Below, in pieces: positions 747-45,635 of a stretch of DNA of 64,000 bases (the stretch's first letter is position 1; each line of letters opens with the position of its first letter). The notes under the pieces were generated by a model that saw only the letters and a list, made by a program, of their open reading frames with translations, made no database searches and had not been told where the DNA came from. The DNA is from an uncultured bacterium (lineage in GTDB: Bacteria; Bacillota_I; Bacilli_A; RFN20; CAG-826), in assembly GCA_949285665.1 (NCBI GenBank), contig CASDYC010000001.1:456107-520106 (forward strand), in the 5' to 3' direction. Made by a program: the position numbers and the translations under genes.

Positions 747-2877
747 CTTTTAATCCTCCTAGTATTGAATTTTTTGCCAATGTATAAACAGGAATATTTT
801 CAGGATTTTCTTTTAATGAACGCTCAATTCTGTCTCTTACAACTTTTGGAGCTTGAACATCTGGTGCATCTTCATGAAGTAACCAAGTTGCAGCAAAATG
901 TGTATCAGAGATTTTGAAAAATGGAGGTTGCATTTCAAAGTCAATCTTCATTGCATATTTATTTCTAGCTGCAAAAGCATCGCCTCTTGGAGGCAACAAC
1001 ATATTTGGTGGAGTACCAGGAATTGCATCTAGTTTTTCTTTAGTATTTAAATCTGGCATAGAACCAAGTAATGCCCAAGTATATGGATGTCTTGGATCGT
1101 AGAATATATCATAAACTGTACCATATTCTACAATTTTTCCAGCATACATAACGGCAATATCATCAGCCATATTTGCAACAACACCTAAATCGTGGGTAAT
1201 GAAAATAATTGATAAATTCATTTCATCTTTTAATTTATTGATTAATTCAAGAATTTGAGCTTGAATTGTAACATCAAGTGCAGTTGTTGGTTCATCACAA
1301 ATTAAAATTTCAGGATTTGAAGATAAAGCAATTGCAATAACAATTCTTTGTCTCATACCACCAGAAAATTCAAATGGATATTGTTTATATCTTCTTTTTG
1401 GATCTGGAATACCAACCGCTTTTAATAATTTAATAGCTCTTTTTTTAGCTTCTGATTTTAAAACTCTTGTTTTTGAACGGTTATATTCATCACAGAAATA
1501 TTTAAAGAATTTGTCAATGTATGTTTGAGAATCAAACTTTTCATTTTCAATTCTGTCTTCAATATATGAAATTATTTCAGTTGTATATTTTCCCATAATC
1601 TTAAAGAATTCTTCTGGTTTTACTATTGTTTCTCTTTCTCCAGCTTTTACATCATTTGGAATTTGAGACATTGTTCCATCTTCATTAAGATATGAATTTA
1701 AAAGTTTTTGTCTTGTTAAAACTAATTTTTTTGATTCAATATACTGTTCAATATAATTTCTAATTGAAACTGGATAGACTTCAATAATATCATCTTTTTC
1801 AGTTGCAAAATCAAATTGAGCTTTTTTAATCAAACGTTTAATTTCTTTTAATGTTTTTAATACTTTTTTAGTATCAAAAGTTTCCATATTTTGGAAATTT
1901 TCTTCATTAAATTTAATTAAATATTCTTTTAATTCTTTTAATTTTTTAAAAGAATAATCATAATTACTTTTTAAAATTGTTGATAAATATTCTCTATAAT
2001 CTTCAAGTTTTAAATCTTCATTATAATCTAAATGAATTAAGTTTTTATGTAATTCATTTAAGTAGAATTTTTTATTTAATTTGTGGAAATTTTCAACTAA
2101 ATCATTAAATTCCTGTTCTTTTAATTTACCTTTATTTAATTTAATTAGTTTTTCAATTTCTAAACCTAATTTATAATTTTCTTTTAAATGTTGAATATTT
2201 ATTTCAACATTTTCTTTTAAAATTTCATCTTTGTTTAATGCTAAATAATCATTAATAAAGGTTTTAAATGTATCAAATTTATTTAATAATTCATCGTTTT
2301 CAAATTTATTAAAAATATCAGAATTTAATAAATCATATTTAATATCATTTCTAATATATTTTTCATGAATATATTTTTTGTATTCATTTTTTTGTAATTG
2401 AGTAATTCTTAAATCATTTGTAATATTTAAAATTTTTCTCTCTTTTGCTTCTGATTTTTTAAGAGAAATTAAATTTTTTCTTGATTCTCTTCTTTGAGCT
2501 TTCGCTTTTAAAAACATTGGTTCCGTTAATTGTTTTCCAACTCTCATAATTGGATTTAAACTACTTAATGGATCTTGGAAAATCATCGAGATTTTACTAC
2601 CTCTAATATGAGTAAATTGTTCTTCTTTTAAAGCTAGTAAATCTTTTCCATCATATAAAATTTGTCCACCTTCAACAATTTTATTATTAGCTAAAATACC
2701 TAAAATTGCTCTTGAAGTAACAGATTTTCCACTACCAGATTCTCCAACAATTGCTAAAGTTCTACCCTTATACAAATCAAATGAGATACCTCTGACAGCT
2801 TTTACGGTACCAGAATTTGTTCTAAAAGAAATTCTTAAATCTTTAACTTCTAAGATTTTTTCTTGTTTTTCTGCCAT
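733..2877 (-). CDS. oppD: Oligopeptide ABC transporter ATP-binding protein OppD carrying a ~330-aa Lys/Glu-rich insertion between Walker A and the ABC signature
   Basis: Walker A GESGSGKS sits near the N-terminus. A long low-complexity K/E/N-rich segment follows, then LSGGMRQRIVIAIAL (signature), ILICDEPTTALD (Walker B), ITHDLGV (H-loop) and the C-terminal oligopeptide ABC domain (PRHPYTW). The stop overlaps the oppF start. Confidence 0.8.
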   Translation of the reverse strand: MAEKQEKILEVKDLRISFRTNSGTVKAVRGISFDLYKGRTLAIVGESGSGKSVTSRAILGILANNKIVEGGQILYDGKDLLALKEEQFTHIRGSKISMIFQDPLSSLNPIMRVGKQLTEPMFLKAKAQRRESRKNLISLKKSEAKERKILNITNDLRITQLQKNEYKKYIHEKYIRNDIKYDLLNSDIFNKFENDELLNKFDTFKTFINDYLALNKDEILKENVEINIQHLKENYKLGLEIEKLIKLNKGKLKEQEFNDLVENFHKLNKKFYLNELHKNLIHLDYNEDLKLEDYREYLSTILKSNYDYSFKKLKELKEYLIKFNEENFQNMETFDTKKVLKTLKEIKRLIKKAQFDFATEKDDIIEVYPVSIRNYIEQYIESKKLVLTRQKLLNSYLNEDGTMSQIPNDVKAGERETIVKPEEFFKIMGKYTTEIISYIEDRIENEKFDSQTYIDKFFKYFCDEYNRSKTRVLKSEAKKRAIKLLKAVGIPDPKRRYKQYPFEFSGGMRQRIVIAIALSSNPEILICDEPTTALDVTIQAQILELINKLKDEMNLSIIFITHDLGVVANMADDIAVMYAGKIVEYGTVYDIFYDPRHPYTWALLGSMPDLNTKEKLDAIPGTPPNMLLPPRGDAFAARNKYAMKIDFEMQPPFFKISDTHFAATWLLHEDAPDVQAPKVVRDRIERSLKENPENIPVYTLAKNSILGGLKDVRR

Positions 2878-2878
2878 A

Positions 2879-4558
2879 TTAGTTATCAGCTCCTCTCAAC
2901 GTTGTATTAAATGCATCTCTTAAACCATTTCCAAATAAGTTAAATGAAATCATTAACAAGGAAATAAGTAAAGCTGGGAACAAAACTGCATGTGGGAATG
3001 TTGTCATTGATTTTTGTCCTTCATCTAGTAATGAACCAACAGAAACCATTTCTCCTAAATTAATAATACCTAAGAATGTCAAACTTGATTCACTAAAGAT
3101 GACACTTGGTATCATTAAAACACTCGATGTAACAAGAGTTCCAATTGCATTTGGGAAAATATGTTTAAAAATCAATCTAGTATCTCTTGCCCCAAGAGTC
3201 CTACTTGCCAAAACATACTCTTGACCTTTAAACCTATAAAATTGCATTCTTGTAAGCGATGCCGTTCCAATCCACCCTGGCAAGATCAAGGCCACAATTA
3301 AACCTAATACGTTATTTCCAGGGAAGTGCGTATTAACAATATTTAAAATAACAATTGATGGAATTGCAGAAATAATATCAGTAATTCTTTCCATTGTAAG
3401 GTCAACTCTACCACCATAATATCCAGCAATTGAACCCCAAATAATACCAATAATAAAGTTAACAACACTTACGCCAATGCCAAGAAGTAATGAAAATCTT
3501 GCGCCTTCTGCAAGTCGAGTCCAAATATCTCTTCCGCCATTTGTTGTTCCAAATAAGAAAGTAGGTTCAAATCCATATTTAAATTCAAAATAATGTTCAT
3601 AATTAACTCTAACATTTAAGTTATTTGAATCCGCTGGAGTCGAATAAACTAAATTACCCTCAGAATCTCTTAAATATATATCTTCTAATGCATTATCATC
3701 ATAGCCAACTGGAACAAAAGCATTACCAGATGAACCTTCAACTCTTTCAAGTTTAAACCAGTAATTTCCTTTACCATTAACATAATATTGTCTAATACTT
3801 GTTAATCTTGATTCAATCGTTGAAGAAGATACACCTTGTTCTTCTAATTTTTGTCGATATTCAACATTGACATATGTTTCATAATCAACAAGTGGCATTA
3901 AAATTGTGACATCATGTTCTTCTTGATAATCTAATATTCTTTGATAATCAGAATTTGAAATTCTAAACGCTTGGATATTTCCAACAGCGTATGTATCATA
4001 TCTAACTCGATACATTGTACTTCCAGAAATAACTTGACCATTTGGAGCTGTTACTCCTTGGAAGAATTTATCAACTACTTCTTTAATTCTTTTTCTTTCA
4101 ACGCCTTGTTCTTGATCAACAGAGTCGTATACTTTATATACACTTTCTCCAACATCTCTAATTTCAGTTCCATCCCAAAAACCAGAATTTTCAAAAGCCT
4201 TTGGAATAACATTTGCATAATACGAATCTTGAAAACCATTTTGGTTAACATCACGTGGAACATTAGATTTAGGATCAACTGCAGGAACAATAATTGCATA
4301 TAAAACTAAAATTCCGATTACACAAGCAGCAGCTATACTTGCTTTATTTTTAGCAAATCTTAAGAAACAATCTTTAAAATATGAAACTGGTTTTGTTTCA
4401 AATTTTAAGTCATGAATACTTTCATTTAATTGTGTAAAATTAAAATCTTCTTTTTTAATATCACTTGTTGAATATGTTTTTTCAATATTTAAATCATTAA
4501 ATTCAACAAATTCATGATGAGGTTTTTTCTTGAATAAATTTTTAAAATTTAATTTCAT
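2879..4558 (-). CDS. oppC: Oligopeptide ABC transporter permease OppC-like with a long N-terminal extracytoplasmic extension
   Basis: The C-terminal half has the 6-TM binding-protein-dependent permease architecture and an EAA-like region (ASRTLGARDTRLIFKHIFPN). The start overlaps oppB by 4 nt (ATGA), and the gene sits between oppB and oppD. Confidence 0.75.
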   Translation of the reverse strand: MKLNFKNLFKKKPHHEFVEFNDLNIEKTYSTSDIKKEDFNFTQLNESIHDLKFETKPVSYFKDCFLRFAKNKASIAAACVIGILVLYAIIVPAVDPKSNVPRDVNQNGFQDSYYANVIPKAFENSGFWDGTEIRDVGESVYKVYDSVDQEQGVERKRIKEVVDKFFQGVTAPNGQVISGSTMYRVRYDTYAVGNIQAFRISNSDYQRILDYQEEHDVTILMPLVDYETYVNVEYRQKLEEQGVSSSTIESRLTSIRQYYVNGKGNYWFKLERVEGSSGNAFVPVGYDDNALEDIYLRDSEGNLVYSTPADSNNLNVRVNYEHYFEFKYGFEPTFLFGTTNGGRDIWTRLAEGARFSLLLGIGVSVVNFIIGIIWGSIAGYYGGRVDLTMERITDIISAIPSIVILNIVNTHFPGNNVLGLIVALILPGWIGTASLTRMQFYRFKGQEYVLASRTLGARDTRLIFKHIFPNAIGTLVTSSVLMIPSVIFSESSLTFLGIINLGEMVSVGSLLDEGQKSMTTFPHAVLFPALLISLLMISFNLFGNGLRDAFNTTLRGADN

Positions 4559-16797: not shown

Positions 16798-17535
16798 TTA
16801 ATATTTTACATCAAATAAGTATAATCCATTAGCATTTAAACAATATGCAGTTACATTTCTTGAAGTTAAGTTATTTAATTTATCTAATATTTCTTCTTTT
16901 TTAATTTTATTTTGTCCATAAAGTAAGATATTAGCTGAAATCATTCTAACTTGATACCTCATAAAACCATCACCATAAAATCTAATGTGAATTAAATTAT
17001 TTTTCTTATATATTTTAATTTTATAAATACATCTAATAAAATTAAATTCATCTTCTTCTTTAGATGTAAAATTTATAAAACATTTTTGTCCAATAAACAG
17101 TTTTGCAATTTTTTTCATTTTATTAATGGATGTTTTGTTAAATGAATCAATAACATAATTATTTAAAAATGGATTATGTTGAAAATTATTAATTACCATA
17201 TCATATATTTTTATTTTTACATTAAATCGAGCATTAAAGTTTTCGTCAACTTGTTTAATATCTTTAATATAAATATCATTAGGTAGCATTTTATTTAATC
17301 GATATTTTAAATCATTTAAATCATAATTTAATTTGTCTATAAAAAAATTAGCATATTGATTTAAAGCGTGAACTTTTGCATCAGTTCGACCACTTCCATA
17401 TATTTTAATTTCTTTATTAAATAATTTTGATAAAACATTCTCTAATTCTTGTTGAACACTTCTAAAATTAGGTTGTTTTTGAAACCCATAAAAATTACTA
17501 CCATCATATGAAAATCTTAATAATAAATTGATCAT
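16798..17535 (-). CDS. truA: tRNA pseudouridine(38-40) synthase TruA
   Basis: Motifs RFSYDGSNFYGFQKQPN and GSGRTDAKVHA. It sits directly downstream of ecfT, as in the Firmicutes ecfA-ecfA-ecfT-truA arrangement. Confidence 0.8.
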   Translation of the reverse strand: MINLLLRFSYDGSNFYGFQKQPNFRSVQQELENVLSKLFNKEIKIYGSGRTDAKVHALNQYANFFIDKLNYDLNDLKYRLNKMLPNDIYIKDIKQVDENFNARFNVKIKIYDMVINNFQHNPFLNNYVIDSFNKTSINKMKKIAKLFIGQKCFINFTSKEEDEFNFIRCIYKIKIYKKNNLIHIRFYGDGFMRYQVRMISANILLYGQNKIKKEEILDKLNNLTSRNVTAYCLNANGLYLFDVKY

Positions 17536-17537
17536 AA

Positions 17538-18416
17538 TTACCTCAAAACCGTTATTGTACTTGTAAAATTAAATAAAACTTCTAATAAATCAAACTGCAT
17601 ATAAGCTAAATAAAATAAGAAACAACAGCATCCTGTTACAAAAATAAATGAAAATAAATCAGCTAGAGAAAACTTATAAATGTGATAACGAGTTCTTTTT
17701 TTACTTGGAATAAATCCTCGAATAGTCATTGCATCAGCCATATCAAGACTTCTTGAAATTGCTGATAATAATAATGGAACAATAATTGAAGTAAAAGTTA
17801 TTATTCTTTTAAAAATATTTCCAGTTGTAAAATTTGCTCCTCTTGATTCTTGTGCTTTTTTAATTCTTGTAGTCTCATTTAAAATTAATGGAATACACCT
17901 TAAAACAAGTGAGATAATCATTGCAAAATCACTGACTGGAAATTTAATAAGTTTTAATGGATACATATACCACTCTAAAGCAAATGATAAGTCAGTTGAT
18001 TTTGTTGTTGAAGTTAAAATAACTGTCAATAATATCATCATTATTAAACGAAGCAATATTCTAAAAGATTGTAAAATTGATTCCCAATAAATGTTATATT
18101 CATAAATATCAAACGCTACCGTTACATAATTTTTATTTGGTAAAAATATATTAATTAAAAATATAAATAAAAATGTAATCCAAATAAATTTTAATGATTT
18201 TAAAATTGTTATAAATTTAATTTTTGAAATAAACATTATAATAGAAATTAAAACTAATAAAATTCCATCAATAATTAAAGTTGTAACAAAAGTGCCATAG
18301 CTAAAAAATACCGCAACCATTAAAATAACAAGAAAAAATAACTTCAATCTGCAATCGATTTTATGGATTATTGTATTATATGGAGTATAATTCCCAAAAA
18401 CAAAATCATTTCCCAT
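17538..18416 (-). CDS. ecfT: Energy-coupling factor transporter transmembrane component EcfT
   Basis: 292-aa polytopic protein downstream of two ECF-type ATPases. Its position and size fit CbiQ/EcfT. Confidence 0.7.
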   Translation of the reverse strand: MGNDFVFGNYTPYNTIIHKIDCRLKLFFLVILMVAVFFSYGTFVTTLIIDGILLVLISIIMFISKIKFITILKSLKFIWITFLFIFLINIFLPNKNYVTVAFDIYEYNIYWESILQSFRILLRLIMMILLTVILTSTTKSTDLSFALEWYMYPLKLIKFPVSDFAMIISLVLRCIPLILNETTRIKKAQESRGANFTTGNIFKRIITFTSIIVPLLLSAISRSLDMADAMTIRGFIPSKKRTRYHIYKFSLADLFSFIFVTGCCCFLFYLAYMQFDLLEVLFNFTSTITVLR

Positions 18417-19251
18417 TCTTTTTTAACTCCACAATGAAATCATCAATATTTTTAACTTTATTAATATCAATAAATCTTTCAAAATCTCTACAAAACTCAA
18501 ATATTTTTGGCTTAACTATACCATAATTTTCTAAATCATCTCTTTTAAAAACACTATAAACATCATTAAAATCAATAACCTTACCTTTATCCATTAAAAT
18601 TACATCATTGCAACAATTTAAAACTAAATCCATATCATGAGTTACTAATAAAATTGAAACACCACTTTCATATAATTTTTTTAAAAGATTAATTAAATCG
18701 TTTTTACCACTTACATCTAGGCCACTTGTTGGCTCATCAAGCAATAAATATTTTGGTTTTAAGGCTAAAATTCCAGCTAAAGCAGCTCTTCTTTTTTCTC
18801 CCCCAGATAAATTAAGTGGACTTTTTTCATATAAATTTTCATTTAAATTAACTAATTTTAATGATTCAATTGCTAATTTTTTTGCTTCTTCTTTTTCAAT
18901 TTTAAAATTGAGTGGTGCAAACATAACATCATCTAAAACGGTATTTTCAAATAATTGATTTTCAGAAAATTGGAATAAATAACCAACTTTTTTTCTAATT
19001 TCTACAATATTTTTTTTAGATTTTTTATAATTACTTGTAATTTTAAAATCGTCCAAAATAACTTCACCATCATTTGGAATTAATAAACCATTTAAATGTT
19101 GTAAAAAAGTTGTTTTACCACTTCCAGTTTTTCCAATAATTGCTGTGAAAAAATGATCTTTAAGTTTTAAAGATATATTATTTAAAGCAGATGTTTCAAT
19201 ATCTGTTTTCTTATTATAAACATGAGTTAAATTATTTATAATGATTGCCAT
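18406..19251 (-). CDS. ecfA2: ECF transporter ATPase EcfA2
   Basis: Walker A GKTGSGKTT, signature LSGGEKRRAALA, Walker B LLLDEPTSGLD. It is the second ATPase of the module. Confidence 0.8.
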   Translation of the reverse strand: MAIIINNLTHVYNKKTDIETSALNNISLKLKDHFFTAIIGKTGSGKTTFLQHLNGLLIPNDGEVILDDFKITSNYKKSKKNIVEIRKKVGYLFQFSENQLFENTVLDDVMFAPLNFKIEKEEAKKLAIESLKLVNLNENLYEKSPLNLSGGEKRRAALAGILALKPKYLLLDEPTSGLDVSGKNDLINLLKKLYESGVSILLVTHDMDLVLNCCNDVILMDKGKVIDFNDVYSVFKRDDLENYGIVKPKIFEFCRDFERFIDINKVKNIDDFIVELKKNGK

Positions 19252-20054
19252 ATTTTATCCCTTATAGTTTTTAAAGAATCATTAAAATCTAGAGTAAAAC
19301 CAGCTTTTTTTAATTTAGTAACTAATTCATATTTAAAAGGTGGATTAATATTTAAAGTTTTTAATAATTCTTCGTTTTTAAATAAATTATCTGGTGTCCC
19401 ATCATATGATATTTTTTGATCTTTTAAAACTAAAACTCTATTAGTTAATAATACTTCTTCCATATTGTGAGTAATTATAATTAAAGTCATTTTATTATCA
19501 GTTTTTTTTAATTTTTCTATAATATTACTAACTTCTAATTCGCCTTTTGGATCAAGCATACTTGTAGCTTCATCAAAAATTAATAATGATAAATTTAAAG
19601 CTAGATTACTTGCAATTGCTACACGTTGTTTTTGTCCTCCAGATAATAAATTTGGCTGATATTTTTTATAATTAATCATGTCAACTAAGTTTAATTTTTC
19701 GTCAATAATTTTTGGCATATCTTTAGGATTTATACATCTATTTTCTAATCCAAAGGCAACATCATCTTCAACGGTATTTCCAATAAATTGATTATCAGGA
19801 TTTTGAAAAATCATTCCAAAATTTTTTCTTATTTCTTCATTTGATATTGAATAATTTTTATTTTTAAAAAATAATTCTCCTTTTGTGGGTTCAATTAACT
19901 TTGTTATTAATTTTCCAAGAGTTGATTTTCCAGATCCATTTTCTCCAATAATTGAAATAATTTCACCTTCGTTTATGCTAAAAGAGATGTTATTTAAAGC
20001 AACATCTTTTTTGTTATAAATTAAAGATACATTTTTTAATTCAATTAATTTCAT
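19236..20054 (-). CDS. ecfA1: ECF transporter ATPase EcfA1
   Basis: Walker A GENGSGKST, signature LSGGQKQRVAIA, Walker B IFDEATSMLD. It is the first ATPase of the module. Confidence 0.8.
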   Translation of the reverse strand: MKLIELKNVSLIYNKKDVALNNISFSINEGEIISIIGENGSGKSTLGKLITKLIEPTKGELFFKNKNYSISNEEIRKNFGMIFQNPDNQFIGNTVEDDVAFGLENRCINPKDMPKIIDEKLNLVDMINYKKYQPNLLSGGQKQRVAIASNLALNLSLLIFDEATSMLDPKGELEVSNIIEKLKKTDNKMTLIIITHNMEEVLLTNRVLVLKDQKISYDGTPDNLFKNEELLKTLNINPPFKYELVTKLKKAGFTLDFNDSLKTIRDKIWQSL

Positions 20055-35095: not shown

Positions 35096-35650
35096 TTAGT
35101 GGTTTTCTTCACTTTTATTTTCGTTTTCTTTTTCAATTTCTGATTCTAGATAATCATAATAATAATCAATTATTTTTAAATCATCGAAAGGGAATATTCT
35201 TTTTTCCATTAATTTTTTAATTTCGGTTATCGTATTTTTTAAAATCGCATCAATTTTTGGATTGTAATGAAATAAGGTTTTATGATTTTCATATTCATTT
35301 ATGTCAATCAATTTAATTTCATTTTTATAATTAAATTTCATATCTAAATCATAATCGACATATTTTATTACACCATTTTCTAAAATTGGAGGGGAAGCCA
35401 AATTGACATAATATCCAACAAATGGATCTTTTAGCATTGCAATAACGTTAAACCATTTATTTTTTGGAAAGATTGTAATTGCTGGTTCTTTTGCTTTCCA
35501 TTCTCTACCATTTCCTTCAAAAACGAGAGCTTTTTTAGAAAGCAAAACAAAATAGTCTTCATTATTTTCAATTAAATATGACTTTTTCCAAGTTCTATGA
35601 AGACTTCCATCATGCTTATAGCATTTTACAATTACTTCGTTTTTTCGCAT
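35096..35650 (-). CDS. DUF402 (Ntdp/FomD-like nucleoside di- and triphosphatase family) protein
   Basis: 184 aa. The FVGYYVNLASPP and KYVDYDLD pattern resembles the DUF402 family. The call rests on memory only. Confidence 0.45.
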   Translation of the reverse strand: MRKNEVIVKCYKHDGSLHRTWKKSYLIENNEDYFVLLSKKALVFEGNGREWKAKEPAITIFPKNKWFNVIAMLKDPFVGYYVNLASPPILENGVIKYVDYDLDMKFNYKNEIKLIDINEYENHKTLFHYNPKIDAILKNTITEIKKLMEKRIFPFDDLKIIDYYYDYLESEIEKENENKSEENH

Positions 35651-36798
35651 TATTTTTCTTCTTTATAAATTTCTTTTACCTTTTCATTTAAATATTCAAT
35701 TAATTCAAAAGCTAAATTTGTTTCAACTTTAAGTCTTTCAATTGCTTTATAATTAATTGTTTCTTTATAATTATCAGCAACTCTCATTATTGAATCATTA
35801 TAATCAAGCGCAAATAAGACTTGTTTTGGAGTTATGGAAATAATAATATCTAATAAATCATTATCATATTTAAATTCATCAAGTTTAGATAAAAATTGAG
35901 AAGTAATAATTAATTTAGCTTTATTTAAATTTGAATAAACTTTTAAATTATTTCTTTCAATTATTGTATCTAATCCATCAATATCATTGACAGAATATAC
36001 TAAATCATTTTTACTTCTAATTTGAAGTAAAATTCTACCTGGTAAATCAACTTCATTTTCAACAACTAAAACTCTTCCTAAAAAAATAGAAACTAACTTC
36101 TTTTCCCCATTTCTTTGCATTGAAACTTCACTATATGAAATATTGCTTCCTTCTTGGTTTAAGTTTTTATAACAAACTCCAACAACATTTCTTGAACCCA
36201 TATTTGCAATATTAGTATAAATTCTTGCATTAGAAACTACTTCTTTATTTAAATTTCCACCTGTATTTAAGGTTACATTAGAATATTTTTCTTTATCATC
36301 AAAAATTAAATCAGTTGTTACTTGATAAAACTTTTTAGCATATTCTAAATATTTCTTTCTTAAATATTTTTTCCCAAGCCAAATATAAAGAAAAAGAGCA
36401 GCAACAAAAAGTATTACAAGACCTAAACCTAAACCTGATCCATATCCTTCAATTGGCATTACAAAAATATAGATTAATACAAAAACAATAATAACTACTG
36501 CAAATAAAGCATAATTAATATAGTTTATGATTTTACTAAGTTTTAAAAATTTAAGTCTATCTTTTTCTAAATCTATTGCATATTCTGGTGCATCTTGAGT
36601 TAAAGTAGATTTTTCATTTCCTGCGATTGCAAAACCTTCTTCATCAACTAATAATTTACTTGAAGAGTCAGGTTTTTCTTCTTGCAATTCTTCACTATTT
36701 TCTTCTAATTTAGTCTCAACTTCTTTTCCATTTTCAGTGTTTTCAACTAAACTTTCTTCTTTATTAATTTCTTGATTTTCGTCTTTTCTTTTTAACAT
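35650..36798 (-). CDS. Membrane protein with an acidic disordered N-terminus, two TM helices and a ~240-aa C-terminal domain
   Basis: The first ~90 aa are E/K-rich. Hydrophobic segments fall at about residues 92-142. Its stop overlaps the DUF402 start by 1 nt. Confidence 0.4.
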   Translation of the reverse strand: MLKRKDENQEINKEESLVENTENGKEVETKLEENSEELQEEKPDSSSKLLVDEEGFAIAGNEKSTLTQDAPEYAIDLEKDRLKFLKLSKIINYINYALFAVVIIVFVLIYIFVMPIEGYGSGLGLGLVILFVAALFLYIWLGKKYLRKKYLEYAKKFYQVTTDLIFDDKEKYSNVTLNTGGNLNKEVVSNARIYTNIANMGSRNVVGVCYKNLNQEGSNISYSEVSMQRNGEKKLVSIFLGRVLVVENEVDLPGRILLQIRSKNDLVYSVNDIDGLDTIIERNNLKVYSNLNKAKLIITSQFLSKLDEFKYDNDLLDIIISITPKQVLFALDYNDSIMRVADNYKETINYKAIERLKVETNLAFELIEYLNEKVKEIYKEEK

Positions 36799-36878: not shown

Positions 36879-38024
36879 TTATAAACTCTTATCACTATTA
36901 TCTTTGATTTCTTTGCTATTTTCTAATGTAGAATTTTCTTCTAAATTTTGATTTTCTAGTTCACTATTTTCTACTTCAGTATTTTCTTCTTCGCTTAATT
37001 TAATCGCTTTTAAGTTTAAATCATCTTGACTTGGTAAAACAGAATTAATCATAAATAATGGTTTAATATATAAAACAATTAAAACTGCAAGATTAATTGC
37101 TCCAGTTGGAAGTACATAAATTGCATTATAAATTAATGCGGCTCCAAATGTTGGAGTTTCTAAATCAGCAAGATAAAATACATAACTATCAATACTTGCA
37201 GCAAACCATCTAATTAAAGTTTGTCCAATAATCAAACCTGATAAAATTAATAAACCATACCAAGTAAAATGATCTTTTCCAATAATAAATTTTCTAAAAA
37301 TAGAAACAATCATTACACTTCCAAAAGCAATCATATATTCCATTGGGAATGTAAATAAACCATAACCATCTAAAACACAACTTAATAAACCATAAACTAA
37401 GCCACTAGCAATAAATGTTTTAGCTGGGCCATATCTTAAAGCGATCACAAATAAAGGAACAATTTGAAGATTAATACTTCCTCCGGTTGCTCCAAGTGGT
37501 ATTTTTAAATAATTTAATCCAAGTGCTAAAGCAACTAATACTGCAATTTCAGTCATACTTTTAACACTAAATACATCAGTTTTTCCTTCGGCACCAAATA
37601 GTAATAAGCAAGATAAAATTTCAAATACAGCAGCAAAAATAAATGTTGTTGTGTATTCAAAATTAAATTCTTCACTTATCATTCCAGGAGATTTTAAAAA
37701 ATTTGGAATTAAAAATAAACCAGCAACAATAACAAGAATTAATAAAGGGGTTATTCCTTTAATGTATTTTTTAAAAAACAATGAAATAGGAATCATAATT
37801 AATGAAACTACATTAAGAATGAAAATACATAATATAAATCCATTAAAATATTTCCCAAAAAACATTGAAGTACCTGAAATTTCTTCAATCACATCTTCTG
37901 TGGTTTCAAAAGATACTAGATTAAAAAAACTTAAAGTAAATCCAATTATCAAAAATAAAAAGGATAAGCAATAAAGAATAAATGATTGCAAATCCAAATG
38001 TAAGAATTCTAGTAATTTTTTCAT
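36879..38024 (-). CDS. ECF-type S-component-like membrane protein (ThiT-like thiamine or precursor transporter candidate) with extra N- and C-terminal regions
   Basis: The central region MTEIAVLVALALGLNYLKIPLGATGGSINLQIVPLFVIALRYGPAKTFIASGLVYGL is typical of ECF S components. A TPP riboswitch sits directly upstream. The start is moved to the ATG at 38022-38024, which is preceded by GGAGGTG. Confidence 0.5.
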   Translation of the reverse strand: MKKLLEFLHLDLQSFILYCLSFLFLIIGFTLSFFNLVSFETTEDVIEEISGTSMFFGKYFNGFILCIFILNVVSLIMIPISLFFKKYIKGITPLLILVIVAGLFLIPNFLKSPGMISEEFNFEYTTTFIFAAVFEILSCLLLFGAEGKTDVFSVKSMTEIAVLVALALGLNYLKIPLGATGGSINLQIVPLFVIALRYGPAKTFIASGLVYGLLSCVLDGYGLFTFPMEYMIAFGSVMIVSIFRKFIIGKDHFTWYGLLILSGLIIGQTLIRWFAASIDSYVFYLADLETPTFGAALIYNAIYVLPTGAINLAVLIVLYIKPLFMINSVLPSQDDLNLKAIKLSEEENTEVENSELENQNLEENSTLENSKEIKDNSDKSL

Positions 38025-38026
38025 AG

Positions 38027-38106
38027 TCACCTCCGCTAGCATTACCTAGATCAAGCATAGTTCAACTGAATCACAGTTGTCTCAGGCGAATTTATTCACC
38101 ACCCAA
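38027..38106 (-). promoter_or_regulatory. TPP (THI-box) riboswitch
   Basis: The minus-strand RNA reads GGUGGUGAAUAAAUUCGCCUGAGA-CAACUG-UGAUU-CAGUUG-AACUAUGCUUGAUCUAGGUAAUGCUAGCGGAGG. The pyrimidine-sensing CUGAGA motif, a P3 hairpin, and the pyrophosphate-sensing GAUCUAG-GUAAUGC-UAGCG-GAGG motif appear in the canonical order. The 3' end overlaps the SD GGAGG. Confidence 0.65.
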
Positions 38107-38191
38107 CAAAATTATAAATATTTAATCAAAAAAATTAAATAAAAAAATTTAAAATATACAAAATCAAATCAAAAATCTCTGCAAAACCTAA

Positions 38192-38857
38192 TTATTTTTG
38201 ATTTATATTCGCCCAATCAATCTCTTTTAAATTATGTTGTTTTAAAAAATTATTACACTTAATAAATACATTGCTATTAAACCAGCCACCTTTATTTGCA
38301 CTTAATGGACTTGGATGAGATGTTTTTAATACAAGATGATTTTTATTTTTAATTAATGGTTCAAGTTTTTGAGCCTCTCTTCCCCATAACATATAAACAA
38401 TTGGTTTATCTAATTGTTCAATAAAATTAATAACATCGATAAAAAAATTATCATACTGTTTAATTTTATGAGATAAAGCCATATGTGCTCTAACAGTTAG
38501 ATATTTATTTAAAAGTAAAACACCTTGCTTTGCAAGATATGTTAAATCTCCATCTTTTTTATTAATATTGCCAAATTCAATTTTAATTTCTTTATAAATA
38601 TTAATTAAACTTGGAGGAATTTCTACACTTTTATTAACACTAAAAGCTAACCCATTAGCTTGATTTTCTTCATGATATGGATCTTGACCAACAATTACAA
38701 CTTTTAAATCACTAACACTACAATAATCAAAACAAGCAAAAACTCTATTTCTTGGAGGATATATTATATGATTTTTGTATTCTATGTTTAAAAATTTATT
38801 AAGTTCAAGACAATAATCTTTGTTTTTTATATTTTTAAATAAATCAGTCCATTCCAT
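38192..38857 (-). CDS. ung: Uracil-DNA glycosylase (family 1)
   Basis: Family 1 UDG motifs VVIVGQDPYH and HPSPLS. 221 aa. Confidence 0.8.
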   Translation of the reverse strand: MEWTDLFKNIKNKDYCLELNKFLNIEYKNHIIYPPRNRVFACFDYCSVSDLKVVIVGQDPYHEENQANGLAFSVNKSVEIPPSLINIYKEIKIEFGNINKKDGDLTYLAKQGVLLLNKYLTVRAHMALSHKIKQYDNFFIDVINFIEQLDKPIVYMLWGREAQKLEPLIKNKNHLVLKTSHPSPLSANKGGWFNSNVFIKCNNFLKQHNLKEIDWANINQK

Positions 38858-40674: not shown

Positions 40675-43029
40675 ATGAAGAAAAATTTACTAACAATTGC
40701 AAGTGCATTGTTATTGTCAATTTCTTTAGCTTCCTGTGATGGTCGAACCGTTGATGGTTCATCAAGTACTGCTACGTCTGATACAGCTACTACTACAACC
40801 ACAGGTACAACAACTACTGGTACAACAACTACTGGTACAACCACAACTACTACAACTACTACTTCCGTCCATACAATGGATGAAGTATTAGCTCAACTTA
40901 AAGGCGTTTTAAGTTTAAAAGGCGATTTGTCAATGCTAGTTAAGGAAAATGGCATTGTCGTTTCTAGTCAAAAATCTGTTTTAGAAGTATTAGTTTCTCC
41001 ATCTCATTACTTTAATAGAGAAACAGGTGATTCTTTCTACATTACAGATATGTATTTAGCAGAAGATGGAACAACTGTTGAAAAATCAGTTGATCCTACA
41101 ACTGGAGAAGTAAGTGAATCTGCTTCTTATTATGATATTGCTGAGTATCAAAACCCATTTGCTGATTTAACAGTTGATGATTTAACACTTGGTGCAAATC
41201 ATCAAGTCGCAATAACATTAACTGAAGATGAATTTACAAAAGCTGGTGCTGTATTAACAATGTATGGCGAAGCTTCTGTTACTTTCCAAACAGCTGTATT
41301 AACAATTGATGATGATTACATGATTACAGAAATGACATTTACTGGAGTTAGCAGCGAAGGTGTCGAATCAAAGTTTGCTTGTTCTGTAATTGATGAAAGT
41401 GAATTAAGTATTCCAGTTTATGAAAGAACTGAAACACATGAAGAAATCGATTCATTATTTAGTGAACTTAAAAAAGGTAATTATACTTTTGCAGTTGAAG
41501 ATAGTGCTGGTGTAGCTTTTGAAACTAAAGTTACTTCTGAAGGTTTTATTATTGATGATCAACAAGGATATATTTTAACAGATGAAGGTTTAGCTGATTT
41601 TGAAGTCGTTGATGGAAAATTAGTTGGTTCATCCCCAGCAACAAGCTTAACAATGGCTGATGTTGTTCCTCCATTTGATTATTTATCTTCAATGTTTGAT
41701 AAAGATGGAGATGTTTATACACTTCCAGCTGGTCTTGGATTAGATTTTGCAATTGAAAATATTTTACCAGAAGCTGCAATATATGATCCTCTTGGCTATG
41801 GTATTGTTTTAGTAGATGATGGTTCATATACATTAACAAATAATCAAGATGGAACTTGGGCTGCTTCATATACTTCTTCTGATCCATTATTTGGATCACA
41901 AGTAACAGTTGAAGTTACAATTTCGGAAATTGGTACAACATTATTTGGTTACACTTTAGAAGATTATGTTGAACCAGCACCACAAACTTCATGGGCAGAT
42001 GTTGATTATGCTCTTGAATTATTAGAACTAGCTGGTATTGCAGAAGAAGATTTACCATTCTATTTACCAGAAGGTGGTTTCTGGCAACTTGATACAGAAA
42101 ATCTTTCTGACTTAATTTTACTCTTACCAAGTGATGTAACTGCTACTCAAGCTCTTACTACTTATACAAGTATGTTAGTTAATGCTGGTTGGGAGCAAAC
42201 ATCTACTAGTGATTATGGAACAAGTTTCTCATTAGATACTGGTGAGCCAGGAAAACTTATTGGTAATATTACATTAGAAGCATATGATGAAGATGGTTTA
42301 TTTGTAATTTGGTTTGAAGATCCAACTCTTCCAGAAACAGAAAATAAAGTAGGACCTTGGATTGATGAACACTTTGCAGATTCAGCAACAATTAACTATA
42401 CAATGGAATTTGATTCTACTTTATATTATTATGAAGTTGATCAAGAAACTCAAATTAAATTAGATGATGTTGCAGATGGAAGTCAAGAATTTGGAACTTC
42501 AAGATTTATGTATACAAAAGATGCAATGCTTACTGGTAAAGTAAGTGAAACTAATGCATTTACACCAAGTGTATTATACTTAAATACTACTAGCGGATTA
42601 TCAATTTATACATATTCAACCGGAGAACCAACACTTGCTCAATCATATCCAGATTATACTTATCAAGCTAATGCTGTTTATACAATGGCTGATTTAGTTG
42701 GTATGGAATCATTATTAGCACTTAATGAAGATGGAACACAAGTTGAGGTTATGGATGAATATGATCTATATTACATTCTTGAAATGACTCAATTTGCTTT
42801 GACCTCTGGTGGAGAAGAAGTTGAATTAACACCTGTTAAATGCGTTATGACACTAGATGAAACTGCAAATGAACTTCAATTCACATTAACATTAGAAGAT
42901 CAAAATTATCTATGGTGGTTAGATCAAGCTCAAACTAAACTTGCATGTATGGAAGTTGAAATTGTAGGTACAATTAAAGCAATTGGAACTACTACAATTG
43001 ATGAAACATACTTACCAAGTAGTCTATAA
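40675..43029 (+). CDS. Large surface lipoprotein with a Thr-rich low-complexity linker (paralog 1)
   Basis: Lipoprotein signal MKKNLLTIASALLLSISLASC. It is followed by DTATTTTTGTTTTGTTTTGTTTTTTTT and then a ~700-aa acidic D/E/T-rich domain. RBS GGAGGTG. Confidence 0.7.
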   Translation: MKKNLLTIASALLLSISLASCDGRTVDGSSSTATSDTATTTTTGTTTTGTTTTGTTTTTTTTTSVHTMDEVLAQLKGVLSLKGDLSMLVKENGIVVSSQKSVLEVLVSPSHYFNRETGDSFYITDMYLAEDGTTVEKSVDPTTGEVSESASYYDIAEYQNPFADLTVDDLTLGANHQVAITLTEDEFTKAGAVLTMYGEASVTFQTAVLTIDDDYMITEMTFTGVSSEGVESKFACSVIDESELSIPVYERTETHEEIDSLFSELKKGNYTFAVEDSAGVAFETKVTSEGFIIDDQQGYILTDEGLADFEVVDGKLVGSSPATSLTMADVVPPFDYLSSMFDKDGDVYTLPAGLGLDFAIENILPEAAIYDPLGYGIVLVDDGSYTLTNNQDGTWAASYTSSDPLFGSQVTVEVTISEIGTTLFGYTLEDYVEPAPQTSWADVDYALELLELAGIAEEDLPFYLPEGGFWQLDTENLSDLILLLPSDVTATQALTTYTSMLVNAGWEQTSTSDYGTSFSLDTGEPGKLIGNITLEAYDEDGLFVIWFEDPTLPETENKVGPWIDEHFADSATINYTMEFDSTLYYYEVDQETQIKLDDVADGSQEFGTSRFMYTKDAMLTGKVSETNAFTPSVLYLNTTSGLSIYTYSTGEPTLAQSYPDYTYQANAVYTMADLVGMESLLALNEDGTQVEVMDEYDLYYILEMTQFALTSGGEEVELTPVKCVMTLDETANELQFTLTLEDQNYLWWLDQAQTKLACMEVEIVGTIKAIGTTTIDETYLPSSL
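40789..40863 (+). repeat. Tandem 15-nt repeat (ggtacaacaactact) encoding GTTTT units within a Thr-rich linker
   Basis: Two perfect 15-nt copies at 40804-40833. Degenerate copies extend through 40863. Confidence 0.6.
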
Positions 43030-43038
43030 ATAAAAACA

Positions 43039-43066
43039 AAAGGCTTTGTGTTTTTCAAAGCCTTTT
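43039..43066 (+). terminator. Terminator of lipoprotein gene 1
   Basis: aaaggctttg-tgttttt-caaagcctttt hairpin followed by a T-run. A second imperfect hairpin (atgtttaaaggcc...ggtctttaaacat) lies at 43081-43113. Confidence 0.6.
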
Positions 43067-43187
43067 CACTTATTAAAAAAATGTTTAAAGGCCTTAAATA
43101 GGTCTTTAAACATGATTAGGGTTTTAATATTTTTAACTAAATATTTCTATATATTTAAAAAAAATTATGTAATTGAAAGGAGATTTT

Positions 43188-45635
43188 ATGAAAAATAAAT
43201 TACTAATTTTTGCAACAGCTATCTTATTTAGTATTACATTAGCATCTTGTGATAATAACACAACTTCTTTAAGTAATACTACAACTAGCACTCAAACAAC
43301 AACTCAAACGACAACTACTACAACTACAACTACTACTACAACAACAACTAGTATTGATCCCGCAACAGTTTTAAGTAATGTTTTAAATCAATTAAAGTCA
43401 CCAATTTCATACGATGGAAAAATTGTTTTAAAACAAAATGGTATTGTTTTATCTCAAATGCATATTTATGGCTATCAAGGTGTTGGTGAAGTTTATATTA
43501 ATAGAGATGGCACAGCAATTCACTTATTTAAAGATGAAACTGGTTATGCAGTTCAAAAAATGATTAATCCTTTAAAAAATGAAGTTGTTAGTGTGCCACT
43601 TACATCTTCTTCGCAATATGTTTTATATGATGAATATGTATTTAATCCATTCCTTAGCTTAACTGCCGATGACTTAGTTTTAAGTGGTAATGAAATTACA
43701 ATTACTGCAACTCAAGAAAATGGTCTTGCTCAATCTTTAAGATATTTTGCTTTTTATACTGATGAGATGAAAGAAGTAAAATTAACTATTGATGATGTTG
43801 GGACAATTTTAAAAGTTGAATTATCAAGTGATAATATTACTTATACAGCAGATATTGTTGATAAAGAAACAATTAATGTTCCAGTAATTGAAGCAAAACA
43901 AGCAACTTCTGATCATCAAAAATTAACAGATTTATTTACTGAATTAGAAAAAGGTAATTATACGGTATCTTATAAATCTGTTTATGAAGATGGTACAGAA
44001 AGCATTGAATTAACATCATTTGATTTTAAATTAACTCCTGATGGTTTATTAACTTCTACTGGTCAAGGGTTCTTAGAAACTGATGATGGATTAGTTCAAG
44101 TTGAAGTAACAGATGATAATAAACTTCAAGGTGTTAGTTTACCAGATGATAGTGTTTCAATTCTTGATGATTTTGTAAATCCATTTTCTCAATTTAAAGC
44201 AGAGACTTTTGATTATGAAAATAACATATTTACTTTACCAGAATATATTGATTATGATTATTTAACATATATTCTTCCAGAAATACAATTTGTTTATAGT
44301 AGTACTTTTGGTTATGAAGTAACTCCAGGTAGTTTATCAATTACATTTAATGAAGATAATACTTATACAATTAATTATGAATATATTTATTATACATATA
44401 ATGATGATTATGAACTTGTATATGTTCCATTAAATGTTACAACAGTAATCTCTAATGTTGGAACTACTTCTTTAGGTTATACATTAGATGATTATATTCC
44501 AAAACCAAGACAAAATTCTTGGAGTGATGTTGAAGGAGCTTCTGATCTATTAGAAACTTATTCGATTCCAAGTGATTTACTTCCATTTTATTTACCAGAT
44601 GAAGCAGATGAATGGTACATTTATAGTGACATTTATTCTGGTGATAGTTTATGTTTATCATTCCCAACCGGTGATAATTTAGCAGCTCATTATGCTGAAT
44701 ATAAAAAATTATTAGAAGCAAAGGGTTGGCAATCTCAAGGTGTTGATGATTATGATGAAGAAAAATTTACATATACAACATCTGAAGGTACAATTTTAAA
44801 AATTGGTCTTGTGCAAGTAGAACAAACTGGTCAATATGAATATTACGAAATTGATATTTATTTATATGCTCCAGAAATTGCATCAGAGATCTCAAATTAT
44901 GTAAATGAAAATATTGTTAATAAACATAACTACACACTTACTGGTACATTAGTTGAAACTTATACTGAAGTTGATGCTGATGGAAATACTGTCGAAAATG
45001 GAATAGTCATCGAAAATACTTTAGTTGATGGTTTGACAACTTATGTAACTGAAGATGCTTATTATCAATATATAGAAACTGAAAAAGGAAAAGCAGGCGT
45101 TCTTTATAAAGAAACTCAAAGTAATGGCACCATAAATACTGAAGGATATATTGCAATGACAGATGATCCAAATGGAGAATTAACTTTCCAATATTCCGAA
45201 GATTTATCAATTGACGATTGGGAATTATATTTATGGGTTTATACATTAGATGATGTATTTAATGGATATACTCCACTAGTTGTTGAAGATGACTACACAC
45301 TTGTTGGAAATGAAGGTCAAGGATATTATGGATTTAACGTTTTTTCAGAAGTATTATCTCTTATAATGTTCCCAGAAGATGCTGGATTTGAATTGGATTC
45401 ACTTTTATCTGAAGAAACTTTATTAAAAATTGATGAAATAGATCCAGATTCAATTATTGTAACAATGGATCCAGAAACAAAAGCCATTCAATTAGTTATT
45501 TCTTGTTTTAGTGAATCTGGTGTTACTATTGACGAACAAGAAGGAAAAACATTTAATCATACTATTGAATTAATCGTTGATGTCTCTGATATTGGTACAA
45601 CAACAATCGATCTTGATTCATTTAATATTCAATAA
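43188..45635 (+). CDS. Large surface lipoprotein with a Thr-rich low-complexity linker (paralog 2)
   Basis: Signal MKNKLLIFATAILFSITLASC. Linker TSTQTTTQTTTTTTTTTTTTTT. It shares conserved blocks with paralog 1 (ELEKGNYT..., SW.DV.....LLE......LPFYLP...). Start at ATG 43188, preceded by AAAGGAG. The ORF-track TTG start at 43173 is rejected. Confidence 0.7.
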   Translation: MKNKLLIFATAILFSITLASCDNNTTSLSNTTTSTQTTTQTTTTTTTTTTTTTTSIDPATVLSNVLNQLKSPISYDGKIVLKQNGIVLSQMHIYGYQGVGEVYINRDGTAIHLFKDETGYAVQKMINPLKNEVVSVPLTSSSQYVLYDEYVFNPFLSLTADDLVLSGNEITITATQENGLAQSLRYFAFYTDEMKEVKLTIDDVGTILKVELSSDNITYTADIVDKETINVPVIEAKQATSDHQKLTDLFTELEKGNYTVSYKSVYEDGTESIELTSFDFKLTPDGLLTSTGQGFLETDDGLVQVEVTDDNKLQGVSLPDDSVSILDDFVNPFSQFKAETFDYENNIFTLPEYIDYDYLTYILPEIQFVYSSTFGYEVTPGSLSITFNEDNTYTINYEYIYYTYNDDYELVYVPLNVTTVISNVGTTSLGYTLDDYIPKPRQNSWSDVEGASDLLETYSIPSDLLPFYLPDEADEWYIYSDIYSGDSLCLSFPTGDNLAAHYAEYKKLLEAKGWQSQGVDDYDEEKFTYTTSEGTILKIGLVQVEQTGQYEYYEIDIYLYAPEIASEISNYVNENIVNKHNYTLTGTLVETYTEVDADGNTVENGIVIENTLVDGLTTYVTEDAYYQYIETEKGKAGVLYKETQSNGTINTEGYIAMTDDPNGELTFQYSEDLSIDDWELYLWVYTLDDVFNGYTPLVVEDDYTLVGNEGQGYYGFNVFSEVLSLIMFPEDAGFELDSLLSEETLLKIDEIDPDSIIVTMDPETKAIQLVISCFSESGVTIDEQEGKTFNHTIELIVDVSDIGTTTIDLDSFNIQ

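Follow-up and report, generated by a model that had tools for sequence, protein, structure and literature searches.

Thiamine pyrophosphate (TPP) riboswitches are the most widespread riboswitch class and are usually described as strand-exchange devices around helix P1. A thiamine transporter gene is a common partner, and its typical product, ThiT, is a single-domain S-component of six helices and ~180–200 amino acids (aa); the toppling model of energy-coupling factor (ECF) transport assumes just such a small, free S-component. A 2024 review puts TPP riboswitches under 'strand exchange', a group apart from direct-occlusion riboswitches (SAM-II, SAM-III/SMK, preQ1-I/II), in which the ribosome-binding site lies in the aptamer and no platform exists (PMC10907184).

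Here we describe the leader and the product of a thiT-like gene in a 64,000-nucleotide (nt) stretch of contig CASDYC010000001.1 from an uncultured bacterium of the CAG-826 lineage (hereafter the window; all positions are window positions, and (-) marks the minus strand). Like TPP riboswitches of family RF00059, exemplified by Escherichia coli thiM and the Lactococcus lactis thiT leader (PMC8862789), the window leader has the conserved core, the P2/P3/P3a and P4/P5 arms, an association with a thiamine transporter gene and, presumably, OFF polarity. It differs from them in having no detectable P1, a J2-4 junction of 2 nt rather than 5, a transcript that probably begins at P2, and no expression platform, the Shine-Dalgarno sequence being the 3' strand of P4. 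We propose that this leader is a TPP riboswitch reduced to its two sensor arms, without P1 or platform, which acts by direct occlusion and regulates a ThiT-type S-component carrying an extra domain; we give this reading a probability of roughly 0.68.

The TPP-type aptamer of the thiT leader

The leader lies on the minus strand in the intergenic region between ung (38192..38857) and the open reading frame (ORF) that ends at 36879. It reads, in order, TATAAT (38116-38111), UUUGU, UGGGUGGUGAAUAAAUUCGC, CUGAGA (38085-38080), CAACUGUGAUUCAGUUGAACUAUG, CUUGAUCUAGGUAAUGCUAGCGGAGG (38055-38030), UGACU and AUG (38024). A first-pass annotation had called a TPP riboswitch here on the strength of THI-box motifs, and direct reading of the minus strand recovered every one of them, including CTGAGA at 38085..38080 and GATCTAGGTAATGCTAGCGGAGG at 38052..38030. 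The aptamer core (38030..38105, -), delimited by a match to RF00059 and by helices predicted with RNAalifold, comprises P2 (38105-38103/38060-38058), P3 (38100-38095/38090-38085), the CUGAGA of J3-2 (38085-38080), P3a (38079-38074/38068-38063), P4 (38055-38053/38032-38030) and P5 (38049-38046/38039-38036) with its loop L5 (38045-38040), all on the minus strand.

Scanning genomes with the protein family yielded 80 loci in metagenome-assembled genomes (MAGs) of uncultured gut or rumen 'Bacilli', Candidatus Alectryobacillus included, the nearest of which (L001) is 92% identical. In 72 of these 80 orthologous loci the THI-box pattern has a single occurrence, which lies upstream of the gene and shares its orientation. 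A variant element that the pattern missed was found by eye in L065, which brings the count to 73 of the 76 loci with enough upstream sequence (four of the 80 are truncated upstream). Two loci, L043 and L050, carry no THI-box upstream; there the ThiT homologue directly follows a transketolase-like gene, which encodes a TPP-dependent enzyme.

It is comparison among the loci that decides the matter, and it extends to an alignment of 70 distinct orthologous leaders. From these sequences RNAalifold predicted five helices de novo, namely P2, P3, P3a, P4 and P5, and 15 of their 21 pairs show compensatory changes. The helices were paired in 88–100% of cases, and their covariation (0.446, as compared to 0.171 in shuffles) was reached by none of 500 shuffles; when the registers were slid, the signal collapsed. 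The window sequence forms every pair of the five predicted helices. The core sequences CUGAGA, ACYUGAUC, the UAAU loop and GCG-AGG, invariant or nearly so in the 70 leaders, follow one another in this order within 38085..38030 of the window, and the ligand-contacting motifs CUGAGA, UGAUC and GCG are all intact there. In the published thiM and thiC structures, CUGAGA reportedly contacts the pyrimidine ring, and UGAUC and GCG the pyrophosphate. These data argue that the window element is a real, if stripped-down, riboswitch of the TPP type, as first annotated.

The covariance model alone would have left the element in doubt. A search with RF00059 matched 38010..38116 at 38.2 bits (E=3.2e-6 on 301 nt, and E=6.7e-4 when both strands of the whole window were searched with all 4227 families), and RF00059 was the sole riboswitch family matched in the whole window under E-value thresholds. 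This score is under the Rfam gathering score of 54.3 bits, so that a default Rfam scan of the window is silent on the aptamer and returns only a tRNA, the RF00059 match appearing only under E-value thresholds. The low score can be traced to four features: the P1 of the model is mismatched, P2 is weak (U-A, G-U, G-C), J2-4 lacks 4 nt, and the stems are AU-rich, the genome having ~25% GC. Six of the 22 orthologous leaders tested reach the gathering score (L003, 59.7; L028, 58.2; L088, 56.8; L011, 56.2; L087, 55.9; L008, 54.5 bits). The first-pass annotation had itself proposed cmsearch as a check and held that a score below threshold would speak against it; the window score is formally such a result, and we set it aside because orthologous leaders of the same design score 55.9–59.7 bits and because the helices covary.

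P1, the promoter and the expression platform

By sequence comparison, P1 is detectable nowhere in the clade. In its canonical register, 42% of the cells of the 70-leader alignment are paired, which is the chance level. In any register, the duplex energy of each leader's own 5' and 3' flanks (-0.95 kcal/mol) is close to that of mismatched flanks (-0.91 kcal/mol; p=0.28), while P3, taken as a positive control in the same flank duplex test, gave p=1e-30.

The position of the promoter is consistent with a transcript that has no room for P1. In the window, the -10-like hexamer TATAAT (38111..38116, -), read from the sequence, ends 5 nt before the first P2 pair; in nearly all of the 70 orthologous leaders, a TAnnnT -10 element ends 5–9 nt (mode 8) before that pair. 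Nearly every locus has a sigma-70-like promoter, in which a -35 element TTGACT or TTGATT is followed after 16–17 nt by TAnnnT, and this -35 element sits within ATTGACTGG, the conserved C-terminal ung codons ATTGA(C/T)TGG. Because the conserved promoter hexamers end shortly before P2, the transcript probably starts at ~38107-38102, that is, at P2. A generic promoter scan did not list the TATAAT at 38111..38116 because the -35 element of the window is weak. Similarity between the window and L001 begins at the TATAAT box, and the sequences upstream of the -10 box are unrelated.

The surroundings of this promoter vary among the loci. In most relatives (L004-L080), the -35 element, ~45 nt upstream of P2, is made by the Ile-Asp-Trp codons of ung, so that a coding constraint and a promoter element coincide. 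In the window, the corresponding ung site (38215..38220) is parted from the leader by ~60 nt of AT-rich sequence, and a new TATAAT lies beside P2. From ung to the thiT leader the window has 85 nt; in L001 an insertion of ~3 kb (981..3900 of that locus) separates the two.

At its 3' end the aptamer runs directly into the translation start. The Shine-Dalgarno sequence GGAGG (38030..38034, -), read from the sequence, overlaps the 3' strand of P4 with its nucleotides A38032 to G38030, while G38034 belongs to the conserved GCG bulge; it had been placed in the 3' strand of the aptamer from the outset, and that placement holds. P4 consists of the pairs C38055-G38030, U38054-G38031 and U38053-A38032 (alignment columns 102-104/125-127). 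The spacing from GGAGG to the ATG at 38024..38022 is 5 nt. The first-pass annotation had preferred this ATG to the start at 38042 given in the ORF list, and two observations bear it out: firstly, the N-termini of homologues align from 38024; secondly, the frame of the upstream AUG relative to the gene varies among loci, and in L002 it is out of frame. That upstream AUG (38040..38042, -), in frame in the window, lies within L5 (GUAAUGC) and belongs to the near-invariant UAAUGC loop, and we consider it incidental rather than a start codon. The public gene calls P0007 (L086) and P0008 (L087) begin upstream of or inside the riboswitch and thereby acquire spurious '...LDLGNASGG...' N-termini.

Most relatives have a separate platform. 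In ~58 of them the aptamer is followed by the arrangement GCGGAGG-UAA-(U-rich)-CCUCCG-loop-GGAGG-UUUUUU-AUG. Because the 3' arm of this hairpin is the real Shine-Dalgarno sequence and a U-run comes next, the hairpin can, as predicted, serve as sequestrator and terminator both. The CGGAGG of the aptamer, which takes in the 3' strand of P4 together with the GCG bulge, is exactly complementary to the 5' arm of the hairpin, CCUCCG. All five leaders folded formed the hairpin when the aptamer helices were enforced, and the unconstrained minimum free energy (MFE) structure of L012 contains the alternative CGGAGG:CCUCCG pairing. Given this complementarity and the alternative pairing in L012, the switching strand in this clade appears to be P4, not P1.

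Nine loci (the window, L001, L002, L003, L028 and L086-L089) are free of such a platform. In all nine, a GGAGG or AAGGAG of the aptamer lies 4–10 nt before the AUG. No CCUCC-like anti-Shine-Dalgarno sequence was found within 60 nt downstream, and no terminator in the window leader. Since a separate platform is absent, the Shine-Dalgarno sequence of the window is the aptamer's own GGAGG. Orthologous thiT leaders from related gut Bacilli MAGs (for example L007, L012, L022 and L053) agree with the window in their P1-less aptamer, their ung-embedded promoter and the long form of their ThiT gene; they keep the CCUCCG...GGAGG hairpin and the U-run before the AUG, with the aptamer's CGGAGG competing, whereas the window lineage has lost the hairpin. 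The window design can thus be described as the relatives' arrangement minus its hairpin, with the Shine-Dalgarno mimic of the aptamer apparently promoted to Shine-Dalgarno sequence. The first-pass annotation had called it the classic translational OFF design; that label does not fit, as the classic design and most relatives use a separate anti-Shine-Dalgarno/Shine-Dalgarno hairpin, and the window leader has neither platform nor detectable P1. With its ribosome-binding site inside the aptamer and no separate platform, it instead resembles SAM-II, SAM-III/SMK and preQ1-I/II. The aptamer class and fold are unrelated to theirs, and the predicted occluder is a helix of a junction-type TPP aptamer rather than a pseudoknot.

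One further difference sets the compact leaders apart. The 5' strand of P4 reads CUU rather than CCU in 9 of 9 compact leaders (alignment A7 column 64; window position 38054), as compared to 0 of 65 platform-bearing relatives. The change is correlated with platform loss and may tune the release of the Shine-Dalgarno sequence; it fits a tuning of P4 after this became the helix that holds that sequence.

A leader so reduced might simply be a decaying relic, in which the platform has been lost, the GGAGG of the aptamer supports constitutive expression of thiT and the THI-box no longer regulates. The sub-threshold Rfam score, the absence of platform and P1, the weak P2 (U-A, G-U, G-C) and a thermodynamic signal that is not significant would all agree with decay. 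We nonetheless think it quite unlikely, as the compact form is kept in nine loci whose ThiT proteins are 36–98% identical to that of the window, and rapid erosion would be expected in a genome of 25% GC. Moreover, every core motif is intact, the helices change in compensatory fashion, and four compact leaders pass the Rfam threshold (L003, 59.7; L028, 58.2; L088, 56.8; L087, 55.9 bits). Between the window and L001, the segment from aptamer to AUG (96.6% identical) is more conserved than the coding sequence (92.5%). This compact pattern fits a maintained functional design over a relic.

Folding of the window leader raised a different alternative, namely that occlusion is not purely direct. Its MFE structure pairs the coding segment AUUACUAG (38007..38014) with CUAGGUAAU (38041..38049), which covers the P5 5' strand and L5 of the aptamer, and the early coding sequences AUCAAG (L003) and AUUAAG (L028) are complementary to the P4 5' strand CUUGAU. 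A cryptic platform in the first codons could therefore pair with the 5' strand of P4 or P5 when TPP is missing, by strand exchange; or else the main output could be secondary to the translation block, through Rho termination or mRNA decay. We regard such a departure from direct occlusion as unlikely. The complementary segments vary in sequence, position and target across loci, they fall in AT-rich codons for Lys, Ile and Glu in which chance matches are common, and the CCUCC-like anti-Shine-Dalgarno sequence sought within 60 nt downstream is missing.

The ThiT-like protein and its N-terminal domain

The regulated gene (36879..38024, -) encodes 381 aa plus stop and, from the ORF list, Pfam and an AlphaFold2 (AF2) model, a predicted ten-helix ECF S-component. 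As first described, it is a ThiT-like protein of about 380 aa with an N-terminal membrane extension of ~150 aa: four helices precede the ThiT (Thia_YuaJ) core at aa 157-322 (37059..37556, -), which matches Pfam PF09515 at 58.4 bits (cut-off 25.8; E=1.3e-15). NCBI names a 381-aa homologue of the protein, P0010, 'energy-coupled thiamine transporter ThiT'. A search of the PDB with the single sequence gave only a weak match to 4HZU_S, and a profile was needed to reach ThiT; the family profile matches Listeria ThiT 4TKR (E=5.9e-11) and L. lactis ThiT 3RLB (E=1.4e-9), in both cases with its C-terminal half only. Repeating the protein search with the alignment yielded few additional sequences. In the AF2 model (predicted local distance difference test, pLDDT, 78.9; predicted template modelling score, pTM, 0.75), the S-component fold is closest to the solved ThiT structures. 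Compared with these (3RLB, 4TKR), the window protein is twice as long, carries a fused four-helix domain and a low-complexity tail, and is 20–21% identical.

The means for docking are likewise present. An AxxxA motif in helix 1 of the S-component is important for docking to EcfT (PMC11109136), and A161/A165 of the window protein align with A15/A19 of L. lactis ThiT. The window also encodes an ECF module, on the minus strand, consisting of EcfA (19236-20054; Pfam ABC_tran), EcfA' (18406-19251; Pfam ABC_tran) and EcfT (17538-18416; Pfam CbiQ, the EcfT family), with truA (Pfam PseudoU_synth_1) after EcfT; the whole spans 16798..20054.

Thiamine is the most likely substrate by these comparisons, with some uncertainty because the ligand residues are only partly kept and the NCBIfam ThiT model is silent. 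We take the thiamine-binding residues of L. lactis ThiT to be W34, E84, H125, G129, W133, Y146 and N151. In an alignment that, at 21% identity, is not residue-exact, E84 corresponds to E229, Y146 to Y299, W133 to Y284, W34 to G182 and H125 to A276, and an invariant N300 lies one position from Y299. One could therefore suppose that the ligand of the RNA, or the cargo of the protein, is not TPP or thiamine but, for instance, a thiamine precursor, a thiamine phosphate or an analogue: two of the seven ligand-contacting positions (W34, H125) are not conserved, NCBIfam gives no ThiT match, and in the aptamer J2-4 is short and P1 is absent. We judge this very unlikely, since both sensor arms keep the nucleotides that reportedly touch the ligand in the thiM and thiC structures, CUGAGA at the pyrimidine ring and UGAUC and GCG at the pyrophosphate, and since sequence profile and fold both rank ThiT structures first, ahead of RibU, FolT, BioY, PanT and YkoE.

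The architecture had been called unusual. This is true in comparison with characterised ThiT proteins; within the clade it is standard, the long form (323–403 aa) being the rule, while Anaeroplasma-type relatives have a 193-aa ThiT behind a riboswitch. The acidic Glu/Asn-rich tail noted after the core was found as a Glu/Asn/Lys-rich segment (aa ~330-381; 36882..37037, -). It occurs only in the closest relatives and is modelled as a long low-confidence helix (pLDDT 42–70), and is best seen as lineage-specific low-complexity sequence in a genome of ~25% GC.

The N-terminal membrane domain (aa 1-150; 37575..38024, -) has predicted helices at ~12-34, 62-83, 91-110 and 118-147; as the number added is even, the topology of the core is kept. 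A partial duplication of the S-component core was considered as its origin and rejected (hhalign probability 0.2%). Pfam gave only sub-threshold, inconsistent matches for the extension and its stand-alone homologues. A profile of the domain retrieved 258 proteins at E<=1e-3 among 1.84 billion representatives, many of them complete stand-alone proteins of 145–200 aa with the conserved motifs G..VFG, FSF and LGxGAIxGGIxSILAA. Profile-profile comparison gave a probability of 98.6% (E=6e-16, 156 columns). The model of a stand-alone protein (pLDDT 90.7) has four helices and a five-stranded extracellular sheet. In the predicted models the domain resembles the claudin/TARP/MP20 tetraspan fold; at 10–13% identity and with no significant Pfam match, this is a likeness of fold rather than demonstrated homology, and the sheet region of the window protein is short and modelled with low confidence (pLDDT 45–56). 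Stand-alone genes occur downstream of an ABC importer operon, within a gal operon and behind rplL, and since these neighbourhoods vary they offer no functional lead. Our literature search, which left most subscription journals outside its coverage, returned nothing relevant on long ThiT or bacterial claudin-like proteins.

Proposed mechanism, genomic setting and significance

Taken together, we propose the following sequence of events. The leader would consist of the sensor arms P2-P3-P3a and P4-P5 only, with transcription starting at or within a few nt of P2. When TPP is abundant, it would bridge the pyrimidine-sensor arm (P2-P3, CUGAGA) and the pyrophosphate-sensor arm (P4-P5, UGAUC, GCG) and so lock P4-P5. 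The locked arm would bury GGAGG and place a folded domain 5 nt from the AUG, blocking the 30S subunit and turning translation off. When TPP is scarce, the weak three-pair P4 (C-G, U-G, U-A) would open and the gene would be translated; in the unconstrained ensemble, the Shine-Dalgarno nucleotides are 23–79% unpaired. The ThiT-type product would then dock on the EcfAA'T module encoded 18 kb away and import thiamine.

Several points weigh against this proposal. On the side of the aptamer, the Rfam score is 16 bits short of the curated threshold, the predicted leader fold does not exceed shuffles in stability (z=-0.4), and the aptamer secondary structure lies 3.6 kcal/mol above the unconstrained MFE. 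A three-pair P4 that includes a U-G pair would be a weak clamp for a Shine-Dalgarno sequence. The only marks of the predicted transcript start are promoter-like hexamers, and if transcripts read through from ung, AU-only pairings such as AAUUUU/AAAAUU could make a P1-like helix around the AUG. We know of no P1-less TPP aptamer that has been shown to bind its ligand, and work on E. coli thiM is said to treat P1 as part of the folded state. On the side of the protein, E84, Y146 and W133 (to Tyr) are kept while W34 and H125 are not, and the NCBIfam collection, its ThiT model included, gave no match to the 381-aa protein at E<=1. No description of a platform-free or P1-less TPP riboswitch was found in the literature searched, the coverage of which was incomplete and excluded most subscription journals.

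The neighbourhood of the gene is conserved, in the order arginase, ung, riboswitch, thiT, a 382-aa membrane protein and DUF402. The uracil-DNA glycosylase gene ung (38192..38857, -; Pfam UDG) is the upstream neighbour in 68 loci. The 382-aa membrane protein (35650..36798, -) reaches the cut-off of no Pfam family; in 44 loci the gene immediately after thiT encodes a homologue of it, and DUF402 is present in 53 (in the window, the two occupy 35096..36798, -). Because no terminator-like site was found between thiT and the gene for the 382-aa membrane protein, the latter and the DUF402 gene may share the thiT transcript and its riboswitch control.

Elsewhere in the window, a sub-threshold match to the ribosomal S15 leader (RF00114; 55500..55610, -; 25.3 as compared to 39.5 bits, E=0.1) is located within an ORF of 1188 aa and is probably due to chance. 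Amid genes that are nearly all on the minus strand, 40675..45635 (+) holds two large ORFs of 784 and 820 aa, with a GC content of 0.28–0.31 as compared to 0.22–0.25 in neighbouring sequence; features of the 784-aa ORF are a lipoprotein-like signal (..LASC) and a long tract rich in Thr.

A TPP riboswitch in front of ThiT is a textbook pairing, and the minimal switch and the fused domain are lineage-specific variants of it. What is new is the P1-less aptamer family, the platform-free, presumably direct-occlusion form in one lineage and the fusion of a tetraspan domain to ThiT. In its broadest form the claim has three parts: that the TPP riboswitch of this clade works without P1, starting at P2 and switching by the P4 3' strand; that in the window lineage it has collapsed to a platform-free direct-occlusion device of ~80 nt with the Shine-Dalgarno mimic as the real Shine-Dalgarno sequence; and that ThiT is fused to a claudin-fold tetraspan domain. 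We advance this whole only tentatively, at somewhat less than even odds.

If it is true, a natural P1-less family would provide structural and synthetic studies with a minimal natural TPP sensor of ~80 nt, and the series of relatives would show how a platform is lost through the promotion of a Shine-Dalgarno mimic to Shine-Dalgarno sequence. Because such leaders fall under the Rfam threshold and gene callers start the ORF inside the aptamer, both the riboswitch and the protein start are likely mis-annotated in AT-rich MAGs. The fusion provides a first functional context for an uncharacterised family of bacterial tetraspan proteins. Finally, a ThiT that permanently carries a four-helix claudin-like domain is relevant to the toppling model of ECF transport: the tetraspan domain would need to be accommodated by, or would modify, the toppling proposed for ECF S-components.

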